Part shown: positions 1-40,313 of the stretch, one piece after another | Position numbering within the stretch: the stretch's first letter is position 1 | Layout: each line of letters opens with the position of its first letter | Assembly (NCBI GenBank): GCA_016711505.1 | Contig: JADJSV010000002.1 | Coordinates: forward strand, 199,674 to 263,673 | Direction: 5' to 3' | DNA length: 64,000 bases | Origin: Bacteroidota bacterium | GTDB lineage: Bacteria; Bacteroidota; Bacteroidia; AKYH767-A; 2013-40CM-41-45 | Position numbers and translations under genes: made by a program | Notes under the pieces: model-generated | Told to the model about the DNA's origin: nothing | Database searches by the model: none | Seen by the model: only the letters and a program-made list of their open reading frames with translations

Positions 1-1332
1 TGACTAGATCTAACTCTGAATTTCTGGAAAGATTTCCAGACATAACGTTCCTGCCTAAATGATCAAACATTTTAAAGTCACCTTGAGCTTCTTCGCTTAA
101 CTTAATATAAAATTTATCTGTTGTAGGATTAGGATAAATTTCAAAATTAAAGTCCAAGTTCTCTAAGACGGAATTTGTTAAGCTGTCACAAATACTCCCT
201 GCCACAGATCCCATTGAATAATCAGGATTGTTTGGAAGACCCCAATATGTACGTTTGCCACTAAGATAAAAACTATACATAGTAAAAATACAGCCTGAAC
301 CTAGAACGTTTGGATCATTGATCACGCTCAAATTCATGTTAAACTGATTATACATGGTATCGGCATAAGGATAGGTAATTACACCATTGTTCCATAATCA
401 GACCAATAAATTTTATCATCTGGTGCGAGTCTTAATAACCCTGCATAATAAACGGGTGAATTAATTGTACTTAAGTGTATCCTTACTGGCAGCGATATTA
501 CTTGCTGTCAGATCATATTGAAACAAATATGAAGTGGTATCATTCTGACTCACATAAATAACATTCTCATTTGCAGAAAATGTAGAGCTTAACGTAATTG
601 CAGAACCACCACCTCGTATACCTGAAATTACAATTGCATTAGAAAAGATACCTGTGCATCTGTCAAAATCGAAAAACTCAATCAATCCAGCATTAGTTGA
701 AAATAATAATCGTGATCCGGATTTTGAAAACTGCATGTGACAAGCATTTCCCCATACTCTATTTCCGATTCCTTGCCTTGATTCTGCAATTCCGGAAGGT
801 GAGATAAAATAAATCGTAAATATATTATCCCCAAGTGGATCACCGTTCCTGTCATCCTTTGTTATTAACCACCAATCCCTTCCATTGGCATGCTTTACTG
901 CTGCAATTCCATCCCATCCTTGATATGGATGTATTTGAATATTTTTTGAGTAACTACTTTCCCTAGACCCTGATTTTCTTTCATATCAATTAATTGGAAT
1001 AATATAATCCAAAAAGATGTCAGTATCGCCTGCAGAAAATAAACTGAGTGCAAATGCTGGATCTTGGAATGTATAATAAAAAGTTCATTGTACCAGGCTC
1101 TTCCAACTATAGAGTCTCCTTATCCATTATTTGGTTATTTATGTTGAAGACAAGTGTGGTTACCTGAATAACTTCCCAAAGTTCCTGCATAAAACAAAAG
1201 TTGTCCACTACTATCGGCAATAGAAGCACACGAGCCGCGTGTATCAAGCGCAGAGGTTAATGATATTAGATTTGATGTATCACTAAAATTGATCCCTGCG
1301 CTATCCCCAAAACACCAAAAGGAATTTTGCAA
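1..1332 (-). CDS. Secreted repeat protein with a T9SS C-terminal sorting domain (CTD-like sequence at about 1-150 on the minus strand). It is fragmented into at least 3 frames and its 3' end runs past the window start.
   Basis: Minus-strand ORF pieces (461-736, 1135-1332) plus my translation of 1-460 giving '...FEIYPNPTTDKFYIKL...' (Por/T9SS CTD-like). The ORF continues upstream of the annotated Met through '...HANGRDWWLITKD...'. Confidence 0.4.
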
Positions 1333-1571
1333 TTGAGCAATCGCGGAATTATTTAGTAAAAAATTAAATATTATAAAAATGCGAGCTAAGAATCCTGCAG
1401 CTCAGCTTGCATTAATTTTAGAGAATAATCACCAATCTGACCACATTGAGAAATTACACTTTTCATCAGAAATTAAAAAAGTTTTAGACTTCTTAATTTA
1501 AAGTCATTAATGTTTATTTTGAATTTAATCAAATTATTGCTTTAACAAAGTATGCAATTTGTATGTATAAT

Positions 1572-1610
1572 AAAAAAAGGCTTACAGGTTTAAACCTTGT
1601 AAGCCTTTGA
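1572..1610 (-). terminator. Hairpin followed by a T-run on the minus strand, immediately 3' of the displaced tRNA-Val 3' fragment. Probably the original chromosomal tRNA-Val terminator.
   Basis: Inverted repeat aggcttacagg-ttt-aaaccttgtaagcct, preceded on the plus strand by an A7 run (a T7 run on the minus strand). Confidence 0.45.
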
Positions 1611-1615
1611 TCTTT

Positions 1616-1662
1616 AGTGTGGGAGCTACAGGGTTCGAACCTGTGACCCTCTGCTTGTAAGG
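1616..1662 (-). repeat. 47-bp direct repeat identical to the 3' end of tRNA-Val (distal att site of the island, the displaced tRNA 3' fragment)
   Basis: agtgtgggagctacagggttcgaacctgtgaccctctgcttgtaagg is identical to 40267-40313, and the two copies diverge immediately outside. Confidence 0.85.
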
Positions 1663-1802
1663 AGGTAGCTAGTACTTGATTGTTGTTTATTGTTACTTTC
1701 CATTACTTTGCAAATGACTGATTTATAATTATATATTTTAATATGCGCTTGCTTAATTTGCATTGTTTTTTACATTTGTTGCAACCATGTTGCAACCGAC
1801 AT

Positions 1803-3025
1803 AAAAAAATGGCATCTGTAAAACTCAAACTGTTCAAAGGCAAGGTACTGAAAAACGGGGAACATCCGATAGTGATTCAGCTAATCAAAGATCGCAAACG
1901 AAAGGTAATTTCTACCGGACGGTCCTGTCCAATTGAACATTGGGATGAGAAAGAAGGATTGCCTAAAAAGCAGCATCCCAATCGTGTCCAATTGACAACT
2001 TTCCTTTTGCATAAAAAGAAAGAAGCACATGACTTACACAATACCATTGAAACTGACAAAGGTTCATCCTATTCAATGGAGGAGTTTGAAAGGAAAATAT
2101 AGAAACGAGAATAAAAAAGCATCTTTCTTTAAATATGTCGATGAATTAGTTGCAAATTTCATTGCCACTGGACGAGTCGGGAATGCCAAAATTTATAAGG
2201 ATACCAAAAGAGAAGTCTATAAATTCCGCAATGGCCTTGATTTGGCATTCACCGACATTGATCTTAAATTCCTTAAAAGCTTAGAAAATTTTTTTCCGAA
2301 CACGAGGTTATAAAGAAAATACGATGAGTGTTTTTTTCAGAACATTGAGATCGATTTATAACAAAGCCATCATTGAGAATTATGTCAAGAAAAGTCTTTA
2401 TCCATTTGACATTTTTAAAGTTTCACAGTTTGATACAAAAACTCAAAAGAGAGCATTGTCTCAAATAGACATAAAAAGTCTAATTGAATATTACCCTGCC
2501 TTAGACAATCCACTCTTCAAATCTTATAGCTATTTTATGTTCAGCTTTTACATGATGGGAATGAATTTTCATGACATGGCTTTTTTAGAATGGGATCAGA
2601 TTAGTTCCGAAAAATTATCATACATAAGAGCAAAAACTAGAAAACATTTTGTAGTAAAGATTCTTCCTCCAGCTCAATCAATAATAGATATTTTCAAGAT
2701 AGCAAAAGAAGGTAAATATGTATTTCCGATTTTCAATGAATTAAAACATACGACTCCGCAATCCAAACATAACAGAATTAAAAAAGTTCTTAAAATGTAC
2801 AATAAAGATTTGAAAGAAATTGGAAGTGCATTAGAGATTAAAACACCTTTGACTTCTTATGTTGCCAGGCATACATGGGCAACTAGTATGAAAAAACTAG
2901 GCGCCTCAGTAGGAATTATTAGCGAAGGATTGGGACATGACTCTGAAGAGACAACTCAAATTTACTTAGATAGTTTTGGCAATGACGTTATGGATAAAGC
3001 AAATGAATTGCTATTAAAAATTTGA
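1803..3025 (+). CDS. Tyrosine-type site-specific integrase (Bacteroidetes phage/ICE integrase family). It is split into 3 frames, with two frameshifts near 2030-2100 and 2313-2324.
   Basis: Three consecutive ORFs (1743-2102, 2029-2313, 2324-3025) in frames 0/1/2 together give ~407 aa. The C-terminal catalytic region reads '...VARHTWATSMKKLGASVGIISEGLGHDSEETTQIYL' (R..H..R...Y motif region). The second junction lies at T7 homopolymers. Confidence 0.8.
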
Positions 3026-3258
3026 TTACCCTAAAATGGCGAATTTAGCCATAAAATTATATTCGTCGAGTTAATTTTTTAATTGAAGTGATATCATTAA
3101 AAAATAACTTCATAATTACTCCAGAAACGGATAAGGGTTTTTTCTTAAAATTCAATGAAAATTTATAATTTTCATTTGATTTTTTATTTAATGTTGAAAA
3201 CCTACTTTGTAAGAAACGAATCATCTTTTAATAATTTTACCTTTGCAGCCGATTAAAT

Positions 3259-4442
3259 TTGGAAAACCTCAGACATCTGTTAGGGTATACAAGAATCATT
3301 AAATCATGGGTAACAATAAATTTAAAAAATCTAATGAGGATTTTCTTAGTCATTACTATGTGCTTGGCTATTATTACATCAAGAGCTGTAACAGCCACGG
3401 TCAAAGGTGCACTTCCATCTGTTCTTACCGAATGTTCCGGTTTAGACTTTAATGGAAATTCGTCCTTTTGGACACATAATGATTCGTGGGGTGATGATCA
3501 ACTTTATCGAATATCATCAACTGGAAATCTCCAACAAACGATTACAATCAATGGGGCAAATAATCGTAATTGGGAAGACATTACTCATGATCAGAACAGA
3601 GATCATCTATTCATAGGCGATTTCGGTAACAATGATAACGATAGAACCGACCTCAAAATATATAAGATCCCATATCCGAATGCTTCAACCACATTTTCAA
3701 CAGCTGAAATCATCGAATTTACATTTTCTGATCAAGAAGATTTTCCTTCCGCTTGGATGAATTTTGATGTCGAAGCATTTTTTCATTTCAACAATCGTTT
3801 ATATTTATTTACAAAGGCCGACGGTTCGGCTGTGGGTTACACAAAGATGTACTCTCTTTCTCAAAATTCTGGACCTCATATTGCTAATCTGGTTGATAGT
3901 TTTTATACAAATGACCGTACTACTTCCGCTACCATAAGTCCCGACGGAAACTCTATGATATTAATGTCTAATTCTCACATTCATATTTTTAAGAATTTTA
4001 GCGGTACAGATTTCTTCGGTGGACAGCATACGCAATTAAATATAAGCGGATCGTGGACACAGAAGGAAGGAATTTGTTTACAAGTAATAACGAAGTTCAT
4101 TTAACAGATGAAAATACAGGTTCTGGCAACAATCTATATTATCTCAATCTGGCAAGTTATATACCAACTTCAACTACAACGAGTGTAGATGAAAATATAA
4201 ATTTGGAAGTTGATATTTTTCCGAATCCTACTACACAATATGTAAACATGCGTTTTGAGGAGAATTTGAAAATTTTGGAAGTAAAAGTTTCTGATGTTTC
4301 CGGAAAGTTAATCGATTCTCATCTTTTCAATAGTGTGCAGGAAATTAAATTGGACCTTGGCAAACTCAATCCCGGTCTTTATTTTTGCAACATTTATTCT
4401 AACGGAATTTTAATAAGGACAGAAAATATTTTAAAGCATTAG
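3259..4442 (+). CDS. Secreted beta-propeller-like protein with a T9SS (Por) C-terminal sorting domain. There is a frameshift near 4053-4104, and the true start is probably the signal peptide near 3334.
   Basis: ORFs 3259-4104 and 4053-4442 lie in different frames. The C-terminus reads '...DIFPNPTTQYVNMRF...KVSDVSGKLI...GLYFCNIYSNGILIRTENI', a typical T9SS CTD. Confidence 0.6.
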
Positions 4443-4482
4443 CACATTCAATCTAATTTAACCTTCCTAAAATAAAATAATC

Positions 4483-4731
4483 ATGAAGAAAATAACTTTT
4501 GCTCTTGTAGTTTCGATAGGAATACTCTTTGGCTGCAATAGCAATACACCAAATGAGGATACTAAAAATCAAAAAGCAGAACACAAACATGGCGATCATA
4601 ATGATGGCAAGCATGAACATAGTGATGGGGCCATTCACGAAAATGAAGATTCTGTAAAACACGGAGGATTTGATGCCGAAAAAGATTCGTCACATCATGA
4701 GCATGAATCACACAAAGGCCATGATCATTAA
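4483..4731 (+). CDS. Small His-rich lipoprotein, putatively metal-binding
   Basis: Lipoprotein signal (LFGC). The mature part is extremely His/Asp/Glu-rich (HKHGDHNDGKHEHSDG...HHEHESHKGHDH), and the gene sits beside the Cu ATPase. Confidence 0.55.
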   Translation: MKKITFALVVSIGILFGCNSNTPNEDTKNQKAEHKHGDHNDGKHEHSDGAIHENEDSVKHGGFDAEKDSSHHEHESHKGHDH

Positions 4732-4781
4732 TCGGATATGTAAAGCAAGCGGATATGAATCACTTGTTTTTAAAATTTCTA

Positions 4782-4833
4782 TTAATCTAAATTCTTAATT
4801 TTAAGCATGTACTTAAAATTAAGAATTTAGATT
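4782..4833. terminator. Perfect 23-bp inverted repeat (taatctaaattcttaattttaag / cttaaaattaagaatttagatta) with a 6-nt loop. Probably an intrinsic terminator or operator between 4483-4731 and 4855-5070.
   Basis: Read directly from the sequence. Confidence 0.45.
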
Positions 4834-4854
4834 AAACTTTGAATATCTTTTAAA

Positions 4855-5406
4855 ATGAAGCCAAAAGGCGTTATCGTATTGGCACTATTCTTTACATTGT
4901 CTGTAATCTTTCTCGTTTATATCATGTTAGGTTTAATACCAATGGTTCTTTTCTCATTTGGTTTTCTTGGCGGATTCGTTCTTTGGTTGATTATACCTAC
5001 TAACTTGTCTTTTAAAAATATCAAATCTCCATTTTTTTATTACCCTTTTTTTTCATTCTTCATAAATTAGAAGAATGATATATGGGATTTTTCTCAAAGC
5101 TTTCGGAAATTACTGGTGTTGCTACACCATCAACCGATTCTATTCTAGTCTACTTATTGTATTGCTTCGCCAGATCCTGGTTCTTAATTCCATATTTGAT
5201 GAAGCACAAATATTCTTTTGGGCACTACCTCGTTTGGACCTTTTTTTACCGCAATGGGAGTTAATGAGCTTGCCCATTTTATCTTTCCATTCTTAACGAA
5301 TAATCCATACGGATATTTCCCGGGAATGGCTACAGTTGTTTTACTTGCACCAGTTGCTTGGTGGGGGATGTTTCGACTTTCACGAAAGGATATTGAGAAT
5401 AATTAG
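4855..5406 (+). CDS. Hypothetical small membrane protein, apparently broken over at least 3 frames
   Basis: Hydrophobic ORFs 4855-5070, 5082-5264, 5075-5296 and 5218-5406 are consecutive and in different frames. No family is recognised. Confidence 0.25.
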
Positions 5407-5502
5407 GCAAAATCATTAAGCTAAAAACCATTAAATTAAGGACAGAGTATTCGCCAGCCGAAATGGGACTATTAATTTGAGGAATTTGATCTATTAGTTG
5501 AA

Positions 5503-7449
5503 CTATGAAATCTTCAAAAACCTAGCATTAAAAGCCACAATAATAGTACTTAAACTCATCAAAACTGCACCTGCTGCCGGATTAAGCATTATTCCAAACA
5601 TGCCCGCTGCCAATGGAATAGCAACTACATTATATCCGGTAGCCCATATTAGATTTTGAACCATTTTCCTGTAGGTGGCCTTTCCAAAAAGAATAAGACT
5701 GACAATGTCTTCAGGATTGCTGTTTACTAAAACGATTCCTGCTGTCTCCGCTGCAATATCGCTTCCACTTCCAACTGCAATGCCGACATCTGCTTGCGCT
5801 AAAGCAGGAGCATCATTAACACCATCCCCGGCCATTGCAATGTACTCACCCTTTTGTTGTAGTTCTTTGATCTTGTCAAGTTTTTGATGTGGTAGAACTT
5901 CAGCATAATAACCATCCATATTTAATTGCCGGCTGACACTTTCAGCGACTTTATTATTATCGCCTGTTAAAAGGATCGATTTTATTTTGGCAACATGTAG
6001 TCTTTCAATTGCTCTACCTGATTCCGGACGTATTTCATCGGCAAGAGATATAAATCCACTTACTTTATCATTAACTAATACATACACAACCGTTTCATTT
6101 GGTTGACTGTCTTTAAGTAACATTTCAGGATAATTTTTCTGAATAAATGCCGGACTGGAAACTAAAACTTTAGAGTTGTTTATAATTCCAGTGATACCTT
6201 GCCCTGTAATAGCTTTAAACTCAGAAACAGGAAGTGGGTTCAATTTTCTTACATTTGCCTTTTTAACTATCCCTGTGGCAATTGGATGTTCGGAATTTTG
6301 TTCAAGTGAAAAAGCCATTTGAAGTATTAACTCATCATTGACAGACGAATCAAATGAACCATACCGGATCACATTGAAATTTCCAAAAGTAAGTGTACCC
6401 GTTTTATCGAATATAACTGTGGTAACCTTTCTGGAATTTTCAAATGCTGTTCTGTTTTTGATCAACAAACCATGTTTTGCAGACAAGGAGGTAGATTTTG
6501 CAACTACTAATGGCACAGCTAAGCCTAATGCATGTGGACAGCAAATTACTATTACTGTAACCATTCTTTCCATTGCAAATGCCAATGACTCATTTGCAAT
6601 AGACCACCAATAAAAGAAAGTAGATATACCTGCAGCTAAAGCTACGATAGTTAAAATTCTTGCCGCTTTGTCAGCGAGTAATTGTGTTTTGGATTTTGTC
6701 TTTTGGGCATCATTGACTAACTTAATAACACTTGCAAGATAAGAGTCTTTCGAAGGATGTGTGACAGAAATTTTTAAGGAACCATTTCCATTGATAGAAC
6801 CTGCAATCACTTTTTCCCCCTTTTGCTTTTTCACGGGGACCGATTCACCTGTAAGCATTGATTCGTTAATATAGCTTTCTCCATCTGAAATAATTCCATC
6901 GGCTCCAATCTTTTCTCCGGGTTTGATTAGAATCAGGTCGCCGATATTTAAGGAATCAACTTTAACTTCGTGGGTCATTTCACCTTTAATTAAATGAGCG
7001 CTTGATGGTAATAATTGTACCAGCAGTTCCAATTCTCTTGAGGCCCCGGCAATAGATTTCATTTCTATCCAATGTCCAAGTAACATAATTAGAATAAGTG
7101 TACATAGTTCCCAAAAGAAATCCATCCCTTGTAAACCAAATACAGTAGCAACACTATAAGCATACGCGACAGTGATAGCAATCGCAATCAAGGTCATCAT
7201 TCCAAAAGTTCTTTGCTGGAACTCATCAACAAGACCTTTCAGGAAAGGAAATCCTCCATATACAAAAACCACAGAGGATAAAGAGAAGAGAACATAAATT
7301 GAACCTGAAAAAGAAAAATCAAAACCAAACCATTTTTGGATCATAGGCGAAAGCAACATAACCGGAATAGTAAGGAATAGCGTTACATAAAACCTACGTT
7401 TAAAATCCTCGATCATCATTTTATGATGGTCATGGTGCATCATTCCCAT
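5503..7449 (-). CDS. Heavy-metal-translocating P1B-type ATPase, CopB-like (copper). The His-rich N-terminal leader is encoded in another frame at 7450-7516.
   Basis: Motifs TGES, DKTGTLT and GDGVNDAPAL are present, with CPH in TM6 and MSLST in TM8. The N-terminus reads MGMMHHDHH. Upstream, in an alternate frame, lies MEHQHQGHNNVEHSNH. Confidence 0.9.
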   Translation of the reverse strand: MGMMHHDHHKMMIEDFKRRFYVTLFLTIPVMLLSPMIQKWFGFDFSFSGSIYVLFSLSSVVFVYGGFPFLKGLVDEFQQRTFGMMTLIAIAITVAYAYSVATVFGLQGMDFFWELCTLILIMLLGHWIEMKSIAGASRELELLVQLLPSSAHLIKGEMTHEVKVDSLNIGDLILIKPGEKIGADGIISDGESYINESMLTGESVPVKKQKGEKVIAGSINGNGSLKISVTHPSKDSYLASVIKLVNDAQKTKSKTQLLADKAARILTIVALAAGISTFFYWWSIANESLAFAMERMVTVIVICCPHALGLAVPLVVAKSTSLSAKHGLLIKNRTAFENSRKVTTVIFDKTGTLTFGNFNVIRYGSFDSSVNDELILQMAFSLEQNSEHPIATGIVKKANVRKLNPLPVSEFKAITGQGITGIINNSKVLVSSPAFIQKNYPEMLLKDSQPNETVVYVLVNDKVSGFISLADEIRPESGRAIERLHVAKIKSILLTGDNNKVAESVSRQLNMDGYYAEVLPHQKLDKIKELQQKGEYIAMAGDGVNDAPALAQADVGIAVGSGSDIAAETAGIVLVNSNPEDIVSLILFGKATYRKMVQNLIWATGYNVVAIPLAAGMFGIMLNPAAGAVLMSLSTIIVAFNARFLKIS

Positions 7450-7607
7450 CGGGGATTTGCATGATTCGAATGTTCAACGTTATTATGTCCTTGATGTTGA
7501 TGTTCCATATGATTGTTTTACTTTTTAATTTAAGAGTTAATGTTCTATTCTAATCAGGTATAAATTAGTGCTTAAATTAACCGCTTTAGCTCCGATGATC
7601 AAATTGT

Positions 7608-8158: not shown

Positions 8159-9427
8159 TTATTCTTTCAACTGCGCTTCACTTAAATGCCTGTAAGCATT
8201 TTCTACCATAACAATTCCATCATCTACAATTACACCAATTGCCAAAGCAATTCCCGTAAGTGACATGATGTTGGAAGAAAACCCTAGAAGATTTAAGAGA
8301 ATAAAACTTGATGCAACCGAAACAGGAATTTGAATGAGAATTATAATTGCGCTTCGCCAATGGAAAAGAAAAATTAAAATGACTATAGTAACACTAATAA
8401 ACACTTCAACCAGTGTTCCCTTTACTGAACTAATAGCTTCTTCAATTAATCCACTTCTGTCATAATTAATTTTAAATTTCACGCCTTCAGGTAAACCTTT
8501 TTGTAATTCAGCCATTTTTGCCTTTACGTTTTTTATAACCTCATCAGCGTTTTCTCCGTATCGCATTACTACAATTCCACCGACTTTTTCGCCTTCTCCG
8601 TTTTCGTCAAAAATTCCGTATCGGATATCGCCACCCATTTGCACCGACCCAACATCTTTAATTCTTATGGGAACATTATTGGAAGTGCTAAGTGAAATAT
8701 TTTCAATTTCACCGATTGATTTAATGTAACCCAAACCTCGCACGATATATGACTTATCGCTCATTTCAAATTTTCGTCCTCCAACATCATTGTTATTTGA
8801 TTTTACCGCTTGCAAAACGTCCATCATTGAGAGATTAAAGAAGTTCAGTTTCACAGGGTCAATAATTACCTGATACTGTTTTTGAAAACCTCCGAAGGAG
8901 GCAACTTCACTTACTCCGGGAACTGTTTGTAAAGAAAACTTGATATACCAATCCTGCAAAGCACGTTGTTCGCCAAGATCATATCCTTTGGCATCTAACG
9001 AATACCAAAAGATATGGCCAACGCCTGTTCCATCGGGGCCGAGTGTGGGTGAAATTCCTTCAGGTAAAAGTTTCTGTGCAAAATTTAACCGCTCTGCTAC
9101 CCTCGTTCTAGCCCAATAAATGTCAACATTGTCCTCAAAAACTAGATATACGAAACTCATTCCGAACATAGATGAACCTCGGATATTTTTAAGTTTCGCA
9201 ATGCCTTGCAAATTTGAAACGAGTGGATATGTAATCTGGTCCTCGATTACCTGCGGGCTTCTCCCCATCCATTCAGAAAAAACAATTACCTGATTTTCGG
9301 ATAAGTCAGGTATTGCATCTACGGGGTTGTGCTGCACTTCGTAAAGTCCCCACCCTAACATGCCTGCTGCAAAAAGTAATACAACAAAGCGATTGCGCAA
9401 TGAGATTGATATAAGACGTTCAACCAT
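8159..9427 (-). CDS. czcA: CzcA/CusA-family heavy-metal RND efflux pump, N-terminal fragment only (residues 1 to about 420). It ends in the TM4-TM5 loop.
   Basis: The N-terminus 'NRFVVLLFAAGMLGWG...NPVDAIPDLSENQVIVFSEW' and the end '...AIGVIVDDGIVMVENAYRHLSE' align to CusA residues ~1-415. A stop follows, and then the next gene starts. Confidence 0.85.
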   Translation of the reverse strand: MVERLISISLRNRFVVLLFAAGMLGWGLYEVQHNPVDAIPDLSENQVIVFSEWMGRSPQVIEDQITYPLVSNLQGIAKLKNIRGSSMFGMSFVYLVFEDNVDIYWARTRVAERLNFAQKLLPEGISPTLGPDGTGVGHIFWYSLDAKGYDLGEQRALQDWYIKFSLQTVPGVSEVASFGGFQKQYQVIIDPVKLNFFNLSMMDVLQAVKSNNNDVGGRKFEMSDKSYIVRGLGYIKSIGEIENISLSTSNNVPIRIKDVGSVQMGGDIRYGIFDENGEGEKVGGIVVMRYGENADEVIKNVKAKMAELQKGLPEGVKFKINYDRSGLIEEAISSVKGTLVEVFISVTIVILIFLFHWRSAIIILIQIPVSVASSFILLNLLGFSSNIMSLTGIALAIGVIVDDGIVMVENAYRHLSEAQLKE

Positions 9428-9438
9428 TGTTGTTTGAA

Positions 9439-9708
9439 TTAGTGTTTTTTCATTTCAGATAATTCCATTCCACACTTTGGGCAATCTCCCGGTTTATCGG
9501 ATAGTACTTCTAGGTCCATCACACATTGGTAGAATGCTTCTCCATTTTTCAACATCGTTGTGTCAATATTGAAGTTTTGTGATGTGTTTTGACCTTGATT
9601 TGTTGTGGAATCGGGCAAAGTTCCTTTTTCACTTCTGTTTGATGAACTATTGCAGGCGCCTAGTAATATTATACTATTTAATGCTAGTAAAAGAATTGCA
9701 TTTTTCAT
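9439..9708 (-). CDS. Small lipoprotein with a C-terminal heavy-metal-binding domain (HMBD, CxxxDxxV...CPKCGM)
   Basis: Lipobox LLGAC. The C-terminus 'YQCVMDLEVLSDKPGDCPKCGMEL' matches the HMBD found at the N-termini of CusB-like adaptors. Confidence 0.65.
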   Translation of the reverse strand: MKNAILLLALNSIILLGACNSSSNRSEKGTLPDSTTNQGQNTSQNFNIDTTMLKNGEAFYQCVMDLEVLSDKPGDCPKCGMELSEMKKH

Positions 9709-9730
9709 TTATACTATTTACTTAGAGAGT

Positions 9731-10887
9731 TTACATTTTCATTCCCGGCATTTCTTGATGGCCTTCCATAGGGTTCGCTCCTTTTTTAAAAATATATTCG
9801 CTGTTCAATAAGTATGCACCTTTCACAACAACAACATCTCCTTCTTTCAATCCATCAATTATTTCAATTTGGCTACTGTTCTGCATACCTACTGTTACCA
9901 TTTTATTTTCAAACACTCCATCATTGTTTCTCACCCACACATTTGCTCCTTTACTATCCTGAACAATTGCATCTAAAGGCAGCACATAAGATTTTTTCTT
10001 TTCTGTTTGTAAGTTTATATTAGCTAACATTCCGGGCTTTATTTGTCTTGATGAATTAGTTAACTGAAATCTTGCCAAAACATACCGTTGTGGCGCTTGC
10101 ACTTGTGGATCAATAAAAACTACTTTCCCCGAAAACAATTCTTGAGTTGCAGCAGGAATAGAAAAACTAGCTTCCGTTCCAATTTTTATATAAGTTAAAT
10201 AGGGGAGATAGACTTGGGCTTCTACCCATAGTGCATTTATTGAAGCGAGTCGGAAAGAGTAGCGCCTGCTGAGACGTAATTCCCTTCATTAACAGATATT
10301 TCGCTCACAAAGCCCTCCGTTTTCGCAAACACCGGAATATTTTGCAGAATTTGCTTGGAGGTATTAAGTTGATCGATTTGCAATTCGCTCATTCCAAATA
10401 ACAGCAACTTATTTTTAGTGCTTTCGATAAAATCACCAGTTGAAAATGACTTTTGTAGAGCTAGCAAATATTCTTCTTGCGCCAAGTTTAAATCTTCACT
10501 GTAGATTTCATAAAGCATCTGACCTCTGCTAATGTATTCTCCAATGTTTCTTACGGCTAACTTTTCAATTCTTCCTTGGACTCTTGCACTGATAGCATCT
10601 GAAAGATTTTGGTCCACTGTAACTTTTCCTGTAAGGGTAATTTCTTTAGCCAACTCATGAACACGAACTGTGTCATATGTAATGTTACCTAATTGGATTT
10701 GTTGGGAACTTAGTTTTATTTGTCCCGTTTTGAGATTATTCCTTTTTACCTTAATCAGTTTCATGTGGCAAATTGGACAGTTGCCAGCTTTATTTTCTAT
10801 CACTTGCGGATCCATTGAGCATGTGAAATACTCATCTGATCCCGCCATCTCGGCCTGATTATTATTTTTTTTGCATGAAATTAGCAA
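9731..10887 (-). CDS. RND efflux membrane-fusion protein (CusB/CzcB-like) with an N-terminal HMBD. It is split into two frames (10237-10887 and 9731-10138).
   Basis: N-terminal 'YFTCSMDPQVIENKAGNCPICHMKL' (HMBD), followed by HlyD-family adaptor sequence and a C-terminal beta-barrel domain ORF in another frame. Confidence 0.7.
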
Positions 10888-10937
10888 CAGAATGGATGCT
10901 AAAAAAAAGCATCATGACTTGGTTTGCGATATTTATT

Positions 10938-24590: not shown

Positions 24591-24601
24591 TTGAATTAAA
24601 A

Positions 24602-26458: not shown

Positions 26459-26465
26459 TTTAAGA

Positions 26466-30600: not shown

Positions 30601-30802
30601 GGATAGGTTACTAATTGTTCAACTTCCTGTCCGGCAAGTGTAGGACAAACAGTGATGATTTGAACTTGATTATTTGTGATGTCAGGTACTGCATCAATTG
30701 AAAGTTGGGTTGCACTCCATACGCCCCAGATTATTAGTGCAAAAGTCATCAAACCAATGATGAACTTGTTTTTATGCTAAACGCAATTATTTTATCGAGC
30801 AT
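27644..30802 (-). CDS. czcA: CzcA/CusA-family heavy-metal RND efflux pump, second copy. It is full length but lies in at least 4 frames.
   Basis: ORFs 30099-30752, 28819-30000 and 27644-28843 cover the N-terminal, middle and C-terminal parts. The true N-terminus MLDKIIAFSIK (30802) is recovered upstream in another frame at an A-run. Confidence 0.85.
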
Positions 30803-31222: not shown

Positions 31223-31333
31223 AAGGCAAAAGTAGTGAAAGTTCCTAAATTACCAATTTTTGAAAGAAAAGTGCTTTTTCATGTATTTTTCATTACTGTT
31301 TGCTCTTGTTTCGTACCTTTAATAATCTAAAAA

Positions 31334-31700
31334 ATGAAAACCATGAACGCATTCCATAAAATGAAGGTTATTTTCACCTTACTTTTCTTATTTACGATTT
31401 CGAATTTCATACAAGCAAAAGATGCAGATACACTTGTCATCAAAACCAACATCTATTGTGATCATTGCAAAGAATGTGAAAGTTGTGGAGGAAAAATTGA
31501 ACGTGATTTAACTTTTGATAAAGGTATTGAAGCAGTTCAACTTGATGAAAAAAGCAATGACTATCAAAGTAACTTATAACTCCAAAAAGACCAACCCTGA
31601 AGCTATTCGACAACTAATTTCAAAATATGGTTTTGATGCTGATGAAGTAAAAGCTGATCCGGTTGCTTATTCTAAGTTGGATGAGTGTTGCAAGAAATAA
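31334..31700 (+). CDS. Secreted heavy-metal-associated (HMA)-domain protein. There is a frameshift at an A6 run.
   Basis: Signal peptide. 'LVIKTNIYCDHCKECESCGGKIE' is a Bacteroidetes HMA-like CxxC region. A second frame gives 'MTIKVTYNSKKTNPEAIRQLISKYGFDADEV...LDECCKK'. Confidence 0.6.
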
Positions 31701-32261
31701 TGGCATATAAAACATCAATCATCTCATAACGATTGCGCTTTTTTATAAAAAAGTCAATTTAAATTTACTGCAATTTTAAGAATGTATAAATATTCAAAAG
31801 CAAAGTTGAAAAAGCAATAAATATATTTTTTAGCGTTTTACTCTTTTGGGACTTTTTGTTTGCCCTTAGGTGACTTTTCTTTGCTGCAAGACATACCTGA
31901 AATGTATCGCCACTGTAAAGCGACTGAAGACAAGGACATGACACCTATTGACTTTGTTACAGACCATTTGGTAAACATTGATAGTCTGTTTGACAAACAT
32001 GAAAACGGTGACGAACAGAAACCACACTCTACAAATCAAACACAGCATCACGGACAGAAGCAGGTTACGCTCATTACTTCCTTTGCCTTTTTTCCATTTC
32101 ACAGTTTATCAAAATGAGTCCAAACCATCAATTCCCAATTTAAACTTTCTTCCATCAGACTACATCACAAAATTTTTTAGACCTCCGATATTTGCTTGAT
32201 CTTTCGTAGTTGCTTTTTATTAAGCGACAGTTCAATTTCAATAACAATTAATCAAGCAAAC

Positions 32262-32686
32262 AATGAAAAAAATAATTTTCGTTGCAATGGTTCTTTTATT
32301 GCCTTTGCGACATGTTTGCCCAAGGCAAAACACCAACGGCTGTTACGACAGCGTTCAATCAGAAATTTCCAAACGCTACTAAAGTAAAGTGGGACAAAGA
32401 AAATGCTCACGAATACGAAGCATCGTTTGTACAGAATGGTGAAAACTATGCAGCCAACTTTAGCGACACAGGCGAATGGGGTTAGAAACCGAAACTCCAA
32501 CTACTTTTAATCAACTTCCAAATCAAGTGCAGACAGCGTTTAATACTTCACATAGGGGGTGACGCCAAAAGCTGTTTCAAGAATTGAAACTTCCAAACAA
32601 GGGACAATTTATGAAGTGGAAATGAAAGGAGGTTCAAAGACTGTTGAAGTATTTTACAAAGCAGATGGAACAGAAGTGAAAGAATA
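32262..32686 (+). CDS. PepSY-like (beta-lactamase-inhibitor-like) two-repeat secreted protein. There are 3 frameshifts, one at a G5 run.
   Basis: Repeats 'TAVTTAFNQKFPNATKVKWDKENAHEYEASFVQNGENYAANFSDTGEW' and 'TTFNQLPNQVQTAFNTSH...AVSRIETSKQGTIYEVEMKGGSKTVEVFYKADGTEVKE' sit in different frames after the signal MKKIIFVAMVLLLP. Confidence 0.5.
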
Positions 32687-32740
32687 ATAACCAAAAAGGC
32701 AAAACAATAAAGTGTTTTGCCTTTTTTAATCTTAAGCAAA

Positions 32741-33157: not shown

Positions 33158-33160
33158 GCC

Positions 33161-34288: not shown

Positions 34289-37200
34289 ACGCACCCATCT
34301 ATTCTTTTCCAATAATATTGATTTCTGAATCGGTCAAAGTGTAAAGGTTATTTACAATATCGTCTATTTCCTTTTCAAGATGTTTGGTTTCAGCAAGTGG
34401 ATTTTCTTTCTTTATTAGTAATATTTTTAACGATAGGTTCTAATAAAGTATTTCTCACTTAAATCTTTAAAAACAGGCAGCTCCTTAAACTCTCCAATCT
34501 TGATCTTTGGAAATAATGCATCAAATTCATTACTCGAATATTTAAAATAAGTGGAAATTAATTTTGAACCAAGCAGGCCTTGAACTCCGTAAAAATACTT
34601 CTTATTTTCTTTATTCGGCGTAGCAATAAAAACACTTTGATCAATAATAAATTTCTCTTCAATTAATGTACAATTCAATTTTTCGCCACATTTGCCTCAT
34701 AATTAATCTCAATCCTTGAAAATATTTCATCTCACGAGGAGCGGCTAACCATTCACCATAACTGATATAATGTTTTTTATCCCAATTGTACGAATAACTA
34801 TTTACATGTTTTCCTCTTAATTCTGGAATGAAGCTGGATCTTTTTGTGATCAGAATGGTAAACCTTATTTTGATTACTTCCTCAGATTGGCCCCTATATT
34901 TATCTAAGGATTTACCCCTCGTGTTATTTCAGCAATGTCTTGTAACTTAATTGATTTTGCTCTAATCTTTTCTAATAATTTAAACACTTCATTCTGCGAT
35001 TCAACATCTATAACTAGTCTTTCATTTTCGCTAAACCGCTTCTGTTCTATGGAATGCTTAATAAATGGAACTTGATTTTTGAATGAGTATACTTTTACGT
35101 TGGAGTCTCCTTTGCCTTTTAAGGCAAGAAAAATTAATGTGTCGACCGAAGCTTCTTGGAATACACTTTCTAAATTTGGAAAAATTGATTGAATTTTGAC
35201 AGCATTTAAAATGTATTCTCTGCATTTTGTAAATGTGATATTTTTCAACCAAGAATTAGGTGTTATAAATGAGATCGATAGTTTTCTTTTAATATGGATA
35301 TCCCTTTTTCAATGAAGCTAACATATAAGTCAAGTTGGTATTGAGAAGTTATGTAATTGTCACTCAAATATTGAATGATGTTTTTATTAAATGACTTACT
35401 TGAAATGTAAGGTGGATTCCCTACAATAACATCAAACCTTCAAAACTCCCTTCATCGTCCAACACTTCAGGAAATTCAAACCTCCACTCAAAAGCATTCC
35501 GATAAATCGCATTGCTTTTGATATCTTCTATTATGGTTTCTTGTTTACTTATTTTCTCTGTAAGTTTTTTAACGTCGTCTTCAAATAGCTTTTTTTCTTT
35601 GCGCAGTTTTTTCAAATAGACCAGTTTGCATGGTTAAGTTAACAAGTTCGCCTTTCCATTTGGCAAGATCTTTAAACTCCTTGCTGTTATTATTTATCTC
35701 AATTCTAAAATCTGATTTAATTGAATTAATTATTTGTTCCAACCCGTTTTACTTCTTTATCATGGGCGTTCTTATAATCTTGAACAAATCCCTTTGTATT
35801 GATTGATGTTATATTTGATGCTTTTCAACGCCTTGCTTAAATCAGCATCTAATGCGAAACGACTTACAAGCGAGTTCCCGCATTTGATATTGATATCAAT
35901 GTTAGGAAGAGTTTCCAGTTCTTTGAATTTGCTTTCTTCGGTGAAATAAGCATTTTTAAGAAGTTCGATCCACAAACGTAAACGACAAATCTTTACCGAA
36001 TTTTGATTGATGTCAACACCGAATAAACAATTTTCAATGATGATTTGCTTTTCATGAAAAAGTGATTTCTGTACTCGCTGAATTTCTTTGTTAATGCTTC
36101 CATTGTTGACCTGATATTCAAAAATATCTTGTCCTTCGTTATAGGTAACAATTAATTCGTCGTTTTCAATTTCTATTTCATATCCCGATAAACGAACGCC
36201 TTTGTTATCTGCAAGAATTCCTAGCTCTGCCTTTATTGAAATGATCTCGTTTAAAGAAGAAACTAAAAAGTGACCGGAACCGACGGCGGGATCGCAAATG
36301 TGCATACCGTTTATTATGTCGTTGAATTCAAGAACCTCTTTAGCTGTTCTACGATCTGCCATGTAGTTTTTTAAATCTTCGAAAACTTCACAATTCCAAC
36401 CATAAGCATCCTTGAATTTCTGAACTACCGCCAAGCGAATAGATTCCCTGCACATGTACATGGTAATAAATCCCGGTGTAAAGATTGAACCGTCTTTATA
36501 GCCATTTATTTTTTCAAAGATCAAACCTAAGACAGAAGCATTAATTAATGTCTTACTGTCTTCTTGAATTTCCTCCGCACCTTCAGAAGCAAAATCATAA
36601 GCTTCAAGAAAATCGAAAAGGTATTGCAAGCTATTTAAGCTCTTTGCGATTGGTTTATTTTTTGCGTCACGCAATACCGTTCCGCTATATAGATCCAGTT
36701 GTTGAGAATCATCGAGGCTATTTATTTTGATCGTTTGATCTTCAAGTTCGCTGATTTCAAATAGCGAACTATTCAGATAAGGAATGCTACCGAATTTTTT
36801 ATTTATTATTTCATTCCGGTCAGACTGTCGTTTGGCCAATACTTGAAAGAAGAGTTTATACAACTCATCGTATTGCGGAATCTTTGTGTAATTTAAAAAC
36901 TTATACGATTGATCGCCTTTGTGGTATTTGATCAATTGCGCTTCCAGTAATTTTAAAAACAAGATCCTGTTGATCCACGTTATGCAAAGTTCTAATGACA
37001 GATTGAACAAGCGATCTTGTCTTGTATCACCATAACTACTCAAGTCCGGAACTTTGTGTAAACTATCTTCTAAATCAAGAATGGTAATCGCATTTTCAAG
37101 CAGCGATCCACCATCTCTTTTTCCTTCTTGCTTTCTGCGAATTAACTTCTTGCTACCTTCTTTTACTTCTTCTAACCCTATTATGTGCAACAATTCAGAA

Positions 37201-37955
37201 TAGAAACCTTTATCGAGTGAATTACTATCGTTAGCAAATTGAATTTTTAATAGATGTATAGGGCTGAAGATCTTATATAGCGCTATGAGTTTTGTATCAT
37301 CTGCCTTATCGTTATTCTTCAACGGTTTTTCATAATCGCGAATGTCAAACCAAGTAAAAAGAACATCTTCCTTTAATTCATCTAAGAATGGTTTTGCGAT
37401 TTCTTTGTAAAACAAATCGGTGTTGGTACTTACTTTTTGACCCCTTTCCCAATCAGTCAAGGCTTTGACTAGCTTAGCGTTTTTCGCAAACAATCGTTCA
37501 AAAACTGAGGCATCAAAAATAAACCATTCGTAAATATTGGTAATTACAAGATGTCGAATATCAATATTCTTTCCGGTGATCCTTTCGCGCAAATAGTAAA
37601 GGATGAGTTCATGCATGGCTTTGGCATTGAGATTTTGCCTTGACACCATGTCTGTCTTATTGGTTGGTCGCTTAACTTCAAACAAAACACCACTAGGTGC
37701 TTTTGCATCCTTGCCTGTATGAATAACAAAATCAGTCCGGCCTTTCGTAGCAACAAGATACTCTTGCTTGTACCAAGTCTCCTTTAGAAAATCCATCAAA
37801 TGAATTTTCACATTCTCTTCGCTTTCCTTTTCATCAATTTGTCCAAGCAACTTAATCAAGTTGCCTTTGACCGATTCAATGTCCGGGCGTTTTGGTTTTA
37901 CTAATCGATAAGCTTTATTGAGGGCCTTCTTTAGGCTAATTTCGTGCAAGGTCAT
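34289..37955 (-). pseudogene. Single-polypeptide Type IIG/IIL restriction-modification enzyme (MmeI/Eco57I-like: N-terminal PD-ExK nuclease, gamma-class N6-adenine MTase, C-terminal TRD). It is fragmented into at least 6 frames.
   Basis: The 727-aa ORF carries 'TDFVIHTG...VLFEVKRP' (PD-ExK), motif I 'DPAVGSGHFL' and 'NIKCGNSL'. Downstream fragments in other frames give 'FEWRFEFPEVLDDEG...FDVIVGNPPYI' (motif IV), 'FIPELRGKHVNSYSYNWDKKHYISYGEW' and 'QGLLGSKLISTYFKY...', and the tail 'LYTLTDSEINIIGKE'. Confidence 0.7.
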
Positions 37956-38488
37956 TTTTACTAAACACTTAGTTTGTAATCTTAAACTGGTTATATCTGA
38001 AAATTTTAGTTTTTTATTCTTTTTTTATAATTCACATCAGACGAAGTCAAATATATAGAAAATAAACCCAAAAAATGAATTTCCGGAAAAACCAGTACTT
38101 ATATTAAGTGATCGTCTTTAAGAATATAATCTTGCAAAATTAGTTGACGGAAAAGAATTTATAGGTTAAACCTATTTTGCAAGCTTATATTTGATTCGGA
38201 ACGTCATTTTGGTGATCGTAATTGAAATTGGAGATAACCAAACTAATTTTATTAACTACTTTACTTCTCGTTTTTTTTAACATCAATAATTTCCGCCTTA
38301 GGCTCCTTTATCCTAATGTTTTCGAACCCATATGGTTTAATAAGTTTATACACTCCTATGATTGCTAGGACAACAACTGCTGTACCAATGACAATTTGGA
38401 TTTTACTAAATTGTCTAGGATTGAACGGTACCGGAATCTGAGATATCGGTGTCCGTATAATTTTATAATATCAGAATAGTTTATCATT

Positions 38489-38947
38489 TTATATAGTTTT
38501 TTTGTGAATTAAAATTACGTCTGGTTTTACTAAGAAGGTTTCGTATTCCCCGTATACTACACACTGAATATTTAAGCGAGAATTAAATGGAAATCTATAA
38601 GTATATGCAGAGAAGTTGAAACCGAACTTTTGAAGTTCTTGGATCTGATAATGATTTCCTTCTGGTTTAAGCATTAAAGAATCTAGAATTTTTTTATTTG
38701 ATTCTAAAATATCTTTGGTTGCATCTTTATTATATTCTTCTTGTACCGGATGTGGCTGTTGCTTTTTTACTGCTCTATGAGTTGCATTATAAAAGTCCTG
38801 ATAACATTTGTTGGAACAATAATCTCTTCCTTTATTATAAACCATGTGAGGTTTTTTGCAAGCAGGGCAAACTCTATAGTTTGGTGAATCTGGATCTAGC
38901 TTTATTTGTCTAGAGTCCTTGTTAAACTTCTTATCGTCCATTTTCAA
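38489..38947 (-). CDS. Hypothetical protein with a zinc-ribbon-like CPACKK...C..KC motif
   Basis: ORF only. No family recognised. Confidence 0.3.
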   Translation of the reverse strand: MKMDDKKFNKDSRQIKLDPDSPNYRVCPACKKPHMVYNKGRDYCSNKCYQDFYNATHRAVKKQQPHPVQEEYNKDATKDILESNKKILDSLMLKPEGNHYQIQELQKFGFNFSAYTYRFPFNSRLNIQCVVYGEYETFLVKPDVILIHKKTI

Positions 38948-39242
38948 TTATTTCTTCTTTAGTTTTAATACGCTTTCCATTGATCCATTCTTCAATAATT
39001 TCAAGATCAAACATCAATACCTTTCCAACTTTTGAATGAGGAATGTATCGCTTATATACCCATCCATAGATAGTCGCTTTAGGCCAGCCATATAATTGAC
39101 ACAATTTTTCTATATTCACTTTCCTAGTTGATTCGGGGCGGTTAAAAGAATTAAGAATTGTAGAATCCAATTTATTTTGGATAATAGCTTCCAGTTGTTC
39201 TACACTGAGATCAATGATTCTAATATTCGAGTAGCCTGACAT
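38931..39242 (-). CDS. Helix-turn-helix DNA-binding protein, excisionase/AlpA (Xis)-like
   Basis: 'KLCQLYGWPKATIYGWVYKRYIPHSKVGKVLMFDLEIIEEWI' is a typical HTH_17/Xis domain of Bacteroidetes integrative elements. Confidence 0.6.
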   Translation of the reverse strand: MSGYSNIRIIDLSVEQLEAIIQNKLDSTILNSFNRPESTRKVNIEKLCQLYGWPKATIYGWVYKRYIPHSKVGKVLMFDLEIIEEWINGKRIKTKEEIIENGR

Positions 39243-39295
39243 GGCTCAAGATTAAGAACAATAAAAGGTCACAAAAAAGTACTTTTACAAGTACC

Positions 39296-40143
39296 TTAAA
39301 AATTTAACATTTCAATTAATCCTGGGATTGGCTTAGCAGTGGGCGCATTCGCAGATGAAATACTTTTATGAACATAATTTTCAGTTAGTTCGATTATCTC
39401 ATTTCTTTTCTGCCCTTTAAAATACCTGCAAATCCACGATTCTAAATTCTTCTTCGAATTCAAGATCAGATTTTTGTGGTGAAGTCTGTGGAATGCATCT
39501 AAAAGTTTGATGCAGGGTGCTTGAAAACTTAATGGATTTTCAATTGGATTCCCTTTCAAAAGCATTTCAAGGACTTCGTGTTCCTTAGAATCAAAATATG
39601 GTTTTAAAAGAGCATGAAATTTTGGAAGAAAATGTTCATTGATTGCAATTTCTTTAAAAACATAACTATCGACCTCGTTTTGGTCTTTGCTCCTTTTTGA
39701 ATCAACCCAATTCATTATTGCTTGTCTTCTTAAAATGCACTCATGAAAACAATTTTGCAGACTTTGTCATAAACTCCATATTGAATCATTCCAACAAACT
39801 CAATTTTATCTTTTGCATAATAATTTCCTTCAAACGCAGTAAAATGATAGTCTAAATAGGAATTGATTTTAAATACATCAATTATTGCAAGCTGAATCTG
39901 AAGAAACACGTGATACATAGTAGATCTTGGATCAATCAGAATGGGAAGCAATCTTTCCGTATTATGCTTATAAATAATTCCATTTGGTTCAGCATACAGA
40001 GGTCCTTGAAAATCTAAAATGCTAATCAAACTTTCACATTTGCTCTTCACTTTTAGATTGGTTGCTGAGGTAGATAATTCTAATAATCTCTTTCTTATTG
40101 ACGAGAGATTTAGATCATATATGTGAAATTCAATTTTGGCCAT
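39296..40143 (-). CDS. Hypothetical protein(s), island-borne. Two consecutive ORFs (39730-40143, 39296-39715) in different frames, possibly one ~276-aa frameshifted gene.
   Basis: ORFs are separated by 15 nt with a frame change. No motif recognised. Confidence 0.3.
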
Positions 40144-40230
40144 TATTAATATTTTATTGAAGAAAAGAAAAAAAATAGAGTTTAGAAAATCAAAAATGTT
40201 TAAACCATGTTTAAACCACCTTAAAAAGAA

Positions 40231-40257
40231 AAAGCCTCTACATCTCTGTAAAGGCTT
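40231..40257 (-). terminator. Imperfect hairpin plus T-run immediately 3' of the intact tRNA-Val. The island-borne sequence parallels the displaced terminator at 1572-1610.
   Basis: aagcctttacagagatgtagaggctt followed by ttttt on the minus strand. It resembles the 1599-1623 region. Confidence 0.35.
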
Positions 40258-40266
40258 GATTTCTAA

Positions 40267-40313
40267 AGTGTGGGAGCTACAGGGTTCGAACCTGTGACCC
40301 TCTGCTTGTAAGG
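40267..40313 (-). repeat. 47-bp direct repeat forming the 3' end of the intact tRNA-Val (tRNA-proximal att site)
   Basis: Identical to 1616-1662. Confidence 0.85.

Follow-up and report, generated by a model that had tools for sequence, protein, structure and literature searches.

The left part of a 64,000-nucleotide stretch of a Bacteroidota bacterium genome (contig JADJSV010000002.1; hereafter the window) contains numerous genes with interrupted reading frames, most of them within an island inserted at a tRNA-Val gene. This raises the question of whether the interruptions record the decay of accessory DNA or arose in the production of the sequence. We consider it very probable that they are residual consensus indel errors from sequencing or assembly, and that the genes are not dead. 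The indels are private to the window, decoupled from substitutions, present in genes and spacers alike, and without evolutionary trace of inactivation. The excess of frameshifted genes would then represent a gradient in data quality rather than biology, given that consensus errors are denser in the variable stretch.

Distribution of frame breaks and borders of the island

Frame breaks supported by homology number approximately 35–37 across the 38.7-kb island, compared with three gene-breaking indels in the 23.7-kb right flank (Table 1). The corresponding rates of 0.9 and 0.13 per kb (ratio approximately 7; binomial p = 3e-5) bear out the sevenfold left-side excess proposed in an earlier, sequence-only reading, which had counted about 34 and about three breaks respectively. 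That reading also recognized at least three switches in the gene to the left of the island; the recount likewise finds this 1.4-kb gene (2–1401) broken several times by clustered small indels (e.g. 377, 381, 400, 467 and 473), in what is an intact 514-aa ORF in the L177/L178 ortholog. Homopolymer runs of five or more occur at 7.6 per kb in the island and 7.5 per kb in the flank, and composition therefore does not explain the difference.

The island possesses an integrase and flanking direct repeats derived from the 3' end of the tRNA, as expected of tRNA-integrated islands. The indel-dense zone stops on its right side at the tRNA-Val/attR site, and 6 of 10 same-species contigs end at the tRNA-Val/att point. 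Two sets of apparent gene breaks were rejected. The two RND halves of the CusA-type cluster are a naturally split gene, with an identical intact arrangement in L196 and L198, and the pairs 47979/48433 and 54419/54831 each correspond to separate genes in relatives.

Table 1. Features of the window, with the frame breaks assigned to them.
Feature	Position	Strand	Frame breaks	Basis and remarks
Left-flank T9SS-secreted protein gene, outside island	1..1401	-	at least 4 pieces	Por_Secre_tail match
attL	1611..1662			direct repeat of tRNA-Val 3' part, 52 nt, 96% identical to 40262-40313
Tyrosine integrase	1743..3022	+	2, plus one compensated pair	read in 3 frames; Arm-DNA-bind_5, SAM_5 and Phage_integrase (Pfam) over 3 ORFs
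378-aa T9SS gene, 82-aa gene, 4846-5391 gene and spacers	3023..5502	+		blastx frame switches, L177-L180 alignment
378-aa T9SS gene		+	2 (3324, 4077)	neighbouring 82-aa gene intact
4846-5391 gene	4846-5391	+	2	indels at 4863, 5046, 5241
P1B-type ATPase 1	5503..7509	-	1, hidden (7455)	E1-E2_ATPase, Hydrolase (Pfam)
Split CusA-type efflux cluster	8159..15326	-		Pfam ACR_tran positions 413-1017 and 2-436
RND N-half	8159-9427	-
HMBD protein	9439-9708	-
MFP-HMBD	9731-10911	-	2 (10257, 10908)
MFP	10938-12189	-	1 (11346)
OEP	12164-13390	-
RND C-half	13380-15326	-
Multicopper oxidase	17159..18907	-	3: 17279 (+2 beside T run), 17886 (-1), 18386 (-1)	4 frame segments
DUF8199-like gene	19751..20207	-	1: 20041 (-2, adjoins T6 run)
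Beta-propeller (Rax2/DUF5122-like) T9SS protein	20514..21975	+	3-4 (21093, 21115, 21689, 21893)
P1B-type ATPase 2	22683..24590	-		intact; 97% amino-acid identity to L001
HlyD/MFP, second efflux system	25218..26485	-	1: 25428 (-1)
RND-OMP fusion gene	26469..30776	-	6 (26742, 27025, 27656, 28815, 28848, 30160)	6 frame segments; 1459 aa in L001
Small metal-related genes	31331..32684	+	HMA-like gene 1; 32252-32684 gene 2	switches at ~31550 (A6 run), ~32480, 32557 (G5 run); blastx/tblastn vs homologs in L018, L062, L026
Type IIG restriction-modification gene	34430..37955	-	at least 5, in tail	tblastn with 1286-aa L005 homolog
Right-end island genes	38264..40143	-	75-aa gene 1; 282-aa gene 1	75-aa, 282-aa and HTH_17 genes; HTH_17 gene intact; C lost at 38453 (75-aa gene), G lost at 39246 (intergenic), G lost at 39759 (282-aa gene)
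tRNA-Val(TAC)	40270-40345	-		ARAGORN; attR = 40262-40313
Right-flank frameshift 1	51855..51856	+	2-bp loss, A6 to A4	tail of 889-aa T9SS gene
Right-flank frameshift 2	60734		G lost	461-aa gene
Right-flank frameshift 3	62072		T6 to T5	343-aa glucosaminidase/LysM gene

Comparison with independent assemblies

The comparators comprise same-species contigs (99–99.9% identical) and sister islands (92–98% identical), which are apparently short-read assemblies judging by their contig names. Each comparable gene is intact in them, and they agree with one another at every tested site. A comparison with orthologous islands for conserved frameshift positions, suggested as a check in the earlier reading, recovered no break shared with a relative or same-species assembly at any tested site; L177–L180, L081–L083, L086 and L181–L195 all stand against the window. 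This argues against the view that the island, together with the variable gene beside it, has escaped selection and carries real frameshifts and true pseudogenes, a view which we regard as very unlikely.

The left end provides the clearest contrast. Between 1619 and 5500, the window differs from L177–L180 by approximately five substitutions and 17 indels of 1–2 bp, eight of which are intergenic, giving a private indel density of 4.4 per kb; the four assemblies agree among themselves over this segment and their ORFs are intact. Mutation-accumulation studies yield about one indel per 10 substitutions, the opposite of the ratio seen here. The eight intergenic indels fall in the spacers of 3023..5502. 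Within the integrase, the private indels are an additional A at 2097, a compensating pair at 2279/2283 and the extension of T6 to T7 at 2295, and four independent assemblies concur against the window at these sites. The T7 run at this break spans 2289–2295, and not 2313–2324 as had been stated. Once reconstructed, the 404-aa integrase matches the intact P0121 at 99% identity. The 4846–5391 gene may be interrupted in L177 too, in which case at least one of its breaks could be real.

Comparable results were obtained at the right end, where four concordant assemblies oppose three single-base deletions between 37707 and 40313; the 282-aa gene is intact in same-species L081, L082, L083 and L086, all of which concur against the window. 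Across the segments comparable with same-species contigs, 6.5 kb of island sequence contains 20 private indels (3.1 per kb) and 22.9 kb of right flank only seven (0.31 per kb; p = 1e-8), and the ratio of indels to substitutions is 20:17 in the island against 7:~254 in the flank (Fisher p = 1e-15). The right-flank indels resemble those of the island in kind and are likewise private to the window. At 51855, every spanning same-species assembly has the two additional A's, and the orthologs of the genes affected at 60734 and 62072 are intact in L191, the single comparator for both sites. The presence of such private indels in conserved right-flank genes as well is a further point against decay of accessory DNA.

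In the island centre, L001 (92%) and L196/L197/L198 (94–98%) are intact at all comparable sites. L001 and L196–L198 have the undamaged state in common at 10257, 10908, 11346, 17279, 17886, 18386, 20041 and 21093–21893. A three-way alignment assigns approximately nine private indel events to the window (six coding), three to L001 and one to L196, those of the two relatives all being intergenic; with comparators just 92–98% identical, these window-private calls rest on parsimony. Gene by gene, the multicopper oxidase is intact in L001, L196 and L197 (583 aa and 575 aa), the beta-propeller protein in L196 and L197 (489/490 aa) and the second HlyD/MFP in L001 (419 aa), the frame switch in the last being evident against more than 90 homologs. 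On the branch leading to the window, indels stand to substitutions at approximately 1:25 here, which is not abnormal by itself; this ratio lies in the natural range for neutral DNA and to that extent is compatible with real lesions.

A mixture of mostly consensus errors with a minority of real lesions was also considered, the candidates being the Type IIG specificity region, the 4846–5391 gene and the left-flank variable gene. The segment from 31.3 to 37.7 kb, including the restriction-modification tail, is without a close comparator, the homolog of the Type IIG gene being only 30% identical. The N-terminal 727 aa of this gene are in one frame, whereas the C-terminal third (34430–35794) is divided among at least five frame segments, the densest frame switching. 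The apparently interrupted frame in L177 and the alignment of the left-flank gene, which contains numerous small indels as well as a block of hypervariable sequence at approximately 1000–1500, point in the same direction. However, the break density of the tail (approximately 4–5 per kb) matches the error density measured over 1619–5500, and no single break is positively marked as real. We consider such a mixture unlikely, though it merits some weight.

Selection and the indel spectrum

Genes in true decay generally acquire nonsense codons and a raised dN/dS, suffer larger deletions and IS insertions, and have lesions in common with relatives; none of this was seen in the island. No nonsense codon occurs inside genes in 5981 codons compared with L001 or 5982 compared with L196. 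Comparison with L196/L001 revealed no larger deletions or IS insertions, and the same genes follow one another in the same order throughout. Nor is dN/dS raised in the disrupted genes. Pairwise counts of non-synonymous to synonymous changes (N:S) are 168:519 in frameshifted and 167:385 in intact genes, and the window-private counts are 26:74 and 21:36 respectively. The multicopper oxidase, with three frameshifts, has window-private changes of N = 11 and S = 51. The RND-OMP fusion is 92–99% identical to L001 in amino acids within its frames and contains no internal stop; relative to L001, its synonymous changes (254) far outnumber the non-synonymous ones (44). Neither nonsense codons nor a non-synonymous excess are thus found even in genes with three to six frameshifts. 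With its many disrupted genes in accessory DNA adjoining a tRNA, the island resembles the degraded islands of host-restricted bacteria, and the frameshifts are indeed present in the sequence and concentrated in such DNA; genuine decay, one of two explanations offered earlier without a preference, is nevertheless not supported, given the private indels, the lack of nonsense codons and the lack of excess non-synonymous change, and neither is the associated suggestion that the integrase, the Type IIG gene and others are true pseudogenes.

The 47 catalogued indels comprise 34 deletions and 13 insertions, a bias that also characterizes bacterial mutation and would suit decay. The spectrum is nevertheless error-like: runs of four or more account for 22 of the 47 indels and for 10% of bases (p = 2e-10), and there is a sizeable class of non-homopolymer deletions. 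That 16 indels, about a third, lie outside runs is a point against consensus error. Regulation of island genes by phase variation or programmed frameshifting might be envisaged, as about half of the indels sit in A/T or G homopolymers. This is scarcely credible, with up to six breaks per gene, many of them outside repeats, others in spacers, and all absent from relatives.

Some long genes of the island are open and the indels are mildly clustered, both of which would suit genuine decay. Breaks per gene track gene length (simulation p = 0.34), so intact long genes need no selection. Clean stretches of 3.5–6 kb separate the mildly clustered indels (p = 0.015–0.04), and this could reflect patchy coverage, or some selection. 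The claim that the long genes, including both ATPases, are intact stands for ATPase 2, which has no frame-changing coding indels and whose sole gaps, at 24549 and 24558 in the divergent N-terminus, compensate each other. It fails for ATPase 1; the body of this gene is intact, but loss of a G at 7455 (G5 to G4) severs the N-terminal 20 residues of what is a 668-aa protein in L196.

Probable origin of the indels and state of the island

These observations favour a technical explanation, the other one offered earlier, as the indels are private, outnumber substitutions against near-identical comparators, occur in spacers too and carry no signal of relaxed selection. They resemble long-read (Nanopore or PacBio CLR) errors in being 1–2 bp long, homopolymer-enriched and deletion-biased, in splitting ORFs that independent assemblies keep whole, in extending to spacers and in varying locally in rate. 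According to two reports, long-read assemblies require short-read polishing against homopolymer indels, and the errors yield false pseudogenes (PMC9262707, PMC12007338). The consensus of this assembly very probably retains small indel errors typical of partly polished long-read data, the conserved right flank having a background of about 0.3 per kb and the strain-variable stretch about tenfold more, i.e. the left-flank variable T9SS gene and the 38.7-kb metal-resistance island. Unlike typical long-read errors, this tenfold rise coincides with a strain-variable island, and we infer that fewer or more heterogeneous reads over the segment led to poor consensus and polishing. The segment may be present in one of several co-occurring strains, or be absent from or different in the polishing reads. 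It is polymorphic: same-species contigs from many samples stop at the tRNA/att site or within the island, which also shows a mosaic pattern of identity to relatives.

Two variants of this account can be distinguished. Excision of the island from part of the population, which would lower coverage of the island alone, fits incompletely: the left-flank gene, which lies beyond attL, is equally damaged, and the property common to all of the damaged DNA is variability between strains. Alternatively, and as a sub-case of the technical explanation, co-assembled island variants (92–99% identical) from the same community could have been collapsed to one consensus, the indels then arising from conflicting alignments and low depth not being the cause. 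Several island variants occur in wastewater-type metagenomes, and the contig ends and mosaic identity described above are consistent with this possibility. It is doubtful, since the window-private substitutions look like those of a coherent, selected lineage (N:S = 47:110), not a scrambled mixture. Should the indels instead be real, they would represent a very recent, nearly indel-only burst in the strain-specific island and adjacent variable gene that inactivated more than 15 genes before substitutions could accumulate; this would imply hypermutation confined to the locus, or inactivation directed at newly acquired DNA, a scenario we hold to be extremely unlikely.

Residual consensus error, the favoured reading, has consequences chiefly for quality control. 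With the window taken at face value, an annotation pipeline would report more than 15 pseudogenes, among them the integrase, two efflux systems, the oxidase and the Type IIG gene, and the island would be judged dead. The assembly appears to be locally unreliable precisely where strains differ, and under-polished accessory DNA can bias pseudogene counts and inferences of island decay in long-read metagenome-assembled genomes. As the present analysis shows, three tests suffice to resolve a case of this kind when reads are lacking: indel privacy, the indel-to-substitution ratio and branch-specific N:S. Judged from sequence, the integrase and most of the other apparent pseudogenes are probably intact. 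The island resembles tRNA-inserted Bacteroidota integrative (mobilizable) elements in its Bacteroidota-type tyrosine integrase, its 52-nt tRNA-Val att repeat, the HTH_17 (excisionase-like) gene at its tRNA end and its mosaic variants in other strains, although no conjugation or relaxase genes came to notice in it. With a heavy-metal cargo of two P1B ATPases, two HME-RND systems, a multicopper oxidase and HMA/HMBD proteins, it is probably an intact, mobile metal-resistance element.

Layout of the island and distribution of frame breaks

The window is low in GC (~35%) and Bacteroidota-like, and T9SS C-terminal sorting domains are numerous. The 3' part of the tRNA-Val gene recurs as a 52-nt repeat (1611-1662 and 40262-40313; 96% identity), which sets the limits of a 38.65-kb integrative element, as claimed in the sequence-only reading. 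Its metal-resistance cargo comprises two P1B ATPases, two RND efflux systems, a multicopper oxidase and HMA/HMBD proteins, alongside a Type IIG restriction-modification gene. Pfam annotation covered the window up to 22.7 kb; for 22.7-64 kb, genes were annotated by way of the tables available for related contigs.

Coordinates of the features discussed, with counterparts on related contigs
Feature	Window position	Strand	Remark
T9SS gene	2-1401	-	left flank, outside attL
Repeat of tRNA-Val 3' part (attL)	1611-1662		left island limit
Tyrosine integrase, Bacteroidota-type	1743-3022		left island end
Gene with possibly shared break	4846-5391		
Split CusA-type RND, first cluster	8159-15326	-	L196 9670-17119; L198 1358-8476
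Multicopper oxidase	17159-18907	-	
RND-OMP fusion, second efflux system	26469-30776	-	L001 3745-8121
Restriction-modification gene tail (C-terminal third)	34.4-35.8 kb		
HTH_17 gene and small genes			tRNA end of island
tRNA-Val(TAC)	40270-40345	-	
Helicase	42201-43358		right flank
Right-flank frame breaks	51855, 60734, 62072		
Tandem repeat	53331-53350		near end of 147-aa gene
7-nt tandem repeat (TTCACTT / GAAAAGT)	55197-55266		upstream of cytochrome-c peroxidase gene
Intergenic region	~57.7 kb		IS110-family transposase in L187 (8317-9399)

Frame breaks were called from stop-to-stop ORFs, Pfam, blastx against 3,299 ORFs of 176 related loci, and direct DNA alignments. The island contains ~35-37 and the left-flank gene several more, against three in the right flank; the roughly 7-fold excess reported earlier for the left side is thus reproduced (0.9 vs 0.13 per kb, island vs right flank; p = 3e-5). 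A search for hidden frameshifts left the right-flank count at three, with two further candidates (47979/48433 and 54419/54831) being separate genes in relatives. Composition is ruled out as the cause, since homopolymer density is equal on both sides.

Relatives were available for most of the window. The right-flank helicase is encoded identically by 13 contigs, drawn from numerous metagenomes and three NCBI MAGs; these contigs are 99.0-99.5% identical to the window and therefore of the same species; additional same-species contigs reach 59.3 kb and span 60.1-64 kb. The reconstructed integrase matches, at 99% identity, an intact protein of 404 aa whose gene lies on four contigs (L177-L180) spanning 1-6211. 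Between 5.5 and 31.3 kb, the comparators are sister islands with all genes intact, from an Illumina MAG (L001; 92% identical) and JGI assemblies (L196-L198; 94-98%), and at this 92-98% identity window-private status is assigned by parsimony. Intact ORFs in L196, L001 and L177 measure 404, 378, 668, 394, 417, 575, 489, 419 and 1459 aa. No close comparator was found for 31.3-37.7 kb, including the restriction-modification tail. Exact-protein look-ups were negative for the RND C-half (GTG start), both ATPases, MbnP, P0243 and an 873-aa right-flank protein, and a metagenome scan with the second ATPase returned relatives of at most 79% identity and no same-species island copy. An 850-aa T9SS protein beside the helicase in an 83%-related species was rejected as an ortholog of the left-flank gene.

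Private indels and tests for gene inactivation

The indels are largely private to the window. Across 1619-5500, L177-L180 mutually agree, and against them the window shows ~5 substitutions and 17 small indels (1-2 bp), eight of which fall in spacers; across 37707-40313, it carries three single-base deletions against which four assemblies concur. Over 22.9 kb of the right flank (40314-64000), the window has seven small private indels; all are deletions, of the same character as the indels of the island. Over segments with same-species comparators, private indels occur at 3.1 per kb in the island vs 0.31 per kb in the flank (p = 1e-8), with indel-to-substitution ratios of 20:17 and 7:~254 respectively (p = 1e-15). 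At every frameshift site of the island centre, the sequence is undamaged in L001 and in L196/L197/L198; no lesion is shared with these orthologous islands. A three-way alignment places ~9 indel events on the window branch (six coding), three on that of L001 and one on that of L196, those of L001 and L196 all being intergenic.

The sequence-only reading had offered two explanations, decay under relaxed selection and technical indels. Genuine decay would have the genes dead for long enough to acquire several real indels each, and about ten substitutions are expected per indel; neutral substitutions should then dominate, mostly non-synonymous and some nonsense. The observations are otherwise. Internal nonsense codons number zero in 5981 codons compared codon-wise with L001 and zero in 5982 with L196 (two stops flagged against L001 precede the true start of the coding sequence). 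Pairwise non-synonymous to synonymous counts (N:S) are 168:519 in frameshifted and 167:385 in intact genes, so constraint on the former is not below that on the latter. On the window branch, frameshifted genes show N=26 and S=74, and the oxidase, with three frameshifts, N=11 and S=51; the RND-OMP gene, with six breaks, retains 92-99% within-frame amino-acid identity to L001. Together with the privacy of the indels, the absent nonsense codons and the synonymous excess leave decay unsupported. The intactness of some long genes is no proof of selection, since gene length accounts for how the breaks are distributed over the genes (simulation p = 0.34). Indel spacing is only mildly over-dispersed (p = 0.015-0.04), a pattern that uneven coverage or polishing could yield without any need for selection.

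The 47 catalogued island indels comprise 34 deletions and 13 insertions; 22 lie within runs of at least four (4.5-fold enrichment, p = 2e-10) and 16 outside runs. Residual long-read consensus error, for which two papers serve as background (PMC9262707, PMC12007338), fits this spectrum.

Source of the indel excess and strain variation around the island

Private indels, their excess over substitutions and the lack of any trace of inactivation make it very probable, from sequence comparison, that the frame breaks are sequencing or consensus indels, an artefact of a known kind. A few lesions may be real, given the restriction-modification tail without a close comparator, the 92-98% identity of the central comparators and one break in the 4846-5391 gene possibly present in L177 too. 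Lowered coverage through excision of the island, suggested earlier as one such technical cause, would be confined to the element, yet small indels also abound in the left-flank gene, which lies outside attL; a technical cause is supported, but excision alone does not account for its extent. That gene contains a hypervariable block relative to other strains, and same-species contigs of many samples stop at the tRNA/att site or within the island. Strain variability may thus be the common trait of the damaged stretch: in a community assembly, strain-variable DNA would be covered by fewer, more heterogeneous reads than the core that the strains have in common, and the dominant strain's short reads could then not polish it.

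The hypervariable block of the left-flank T9SS gene (~1000-1500; 127 mismatches per 500 nt against L177, the remainder being ~97% identical) suggests that the product is a surface or secreted protein undergoing diversification. The island itself is a mosaic among strains. Its ends (1619-6211 and 37707-40313) are 99.5-99.9% identical to other assemblies (L177-L180, L081-L086), inward of 5.5 kb identity falls to ~94%, and contigs from short reads stop at 37707, 38657 or the tRNA; the drop and the contig ends indicate several cargo variants built on a single integrase/att backbone, each at this tRNA-Val. In the right flank, copy number at both tandem repeats differs among same-species strains and looks like real polymorphism rather than error. 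The alignment of L187, from another strain of the species, stops at its IS110-family transposase. Two same-species MAGs (L084/L085; GCA_020051655.1, GCA_017988185.1) have stretches unaligned to 43878-44569 and 49762-50316 and fragmented gene calls inside 664-aa and 889-aa T9SS genes, probably a sign of gaps or local assembly faults in the two records.

Split and fused RND pumps

The two efflux systems differ in architecture. In the second, the RND permease and outer-membrane factor are fused in one ORF, which is 1459 aa long in L001 and roughly 1436-1490 aa long at many further loci of Bacteroidota. In the first, the CusA-type RND is split into two genes whose order is permuted. The cluster opens with the C-half (TM7-12, 631 aa), followed by the OEP gene, two MFP genes (one with an HMBD domain) and a gene for a small HMBD protein, and the N-half (TM1-6, 422 aa) lies downstream of these; the split point is the TM6/TM7 loop. 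A quick literature search found no description of such an arrangement. Rearrangement or misassembly is rejected, as the arrangement is conserved and intact in several independent assemblies, and purifying selection acts strongly on each half, with counts of S=26, N=1 for the N-half and S=57, N=8 for the C-half. The C-half belongs to a widespread family, represented by at least 120 clusters of 630-670 aa at 86-100% identity. The split is natural, and this pump is of more biological interest than the excess of frame breaks.
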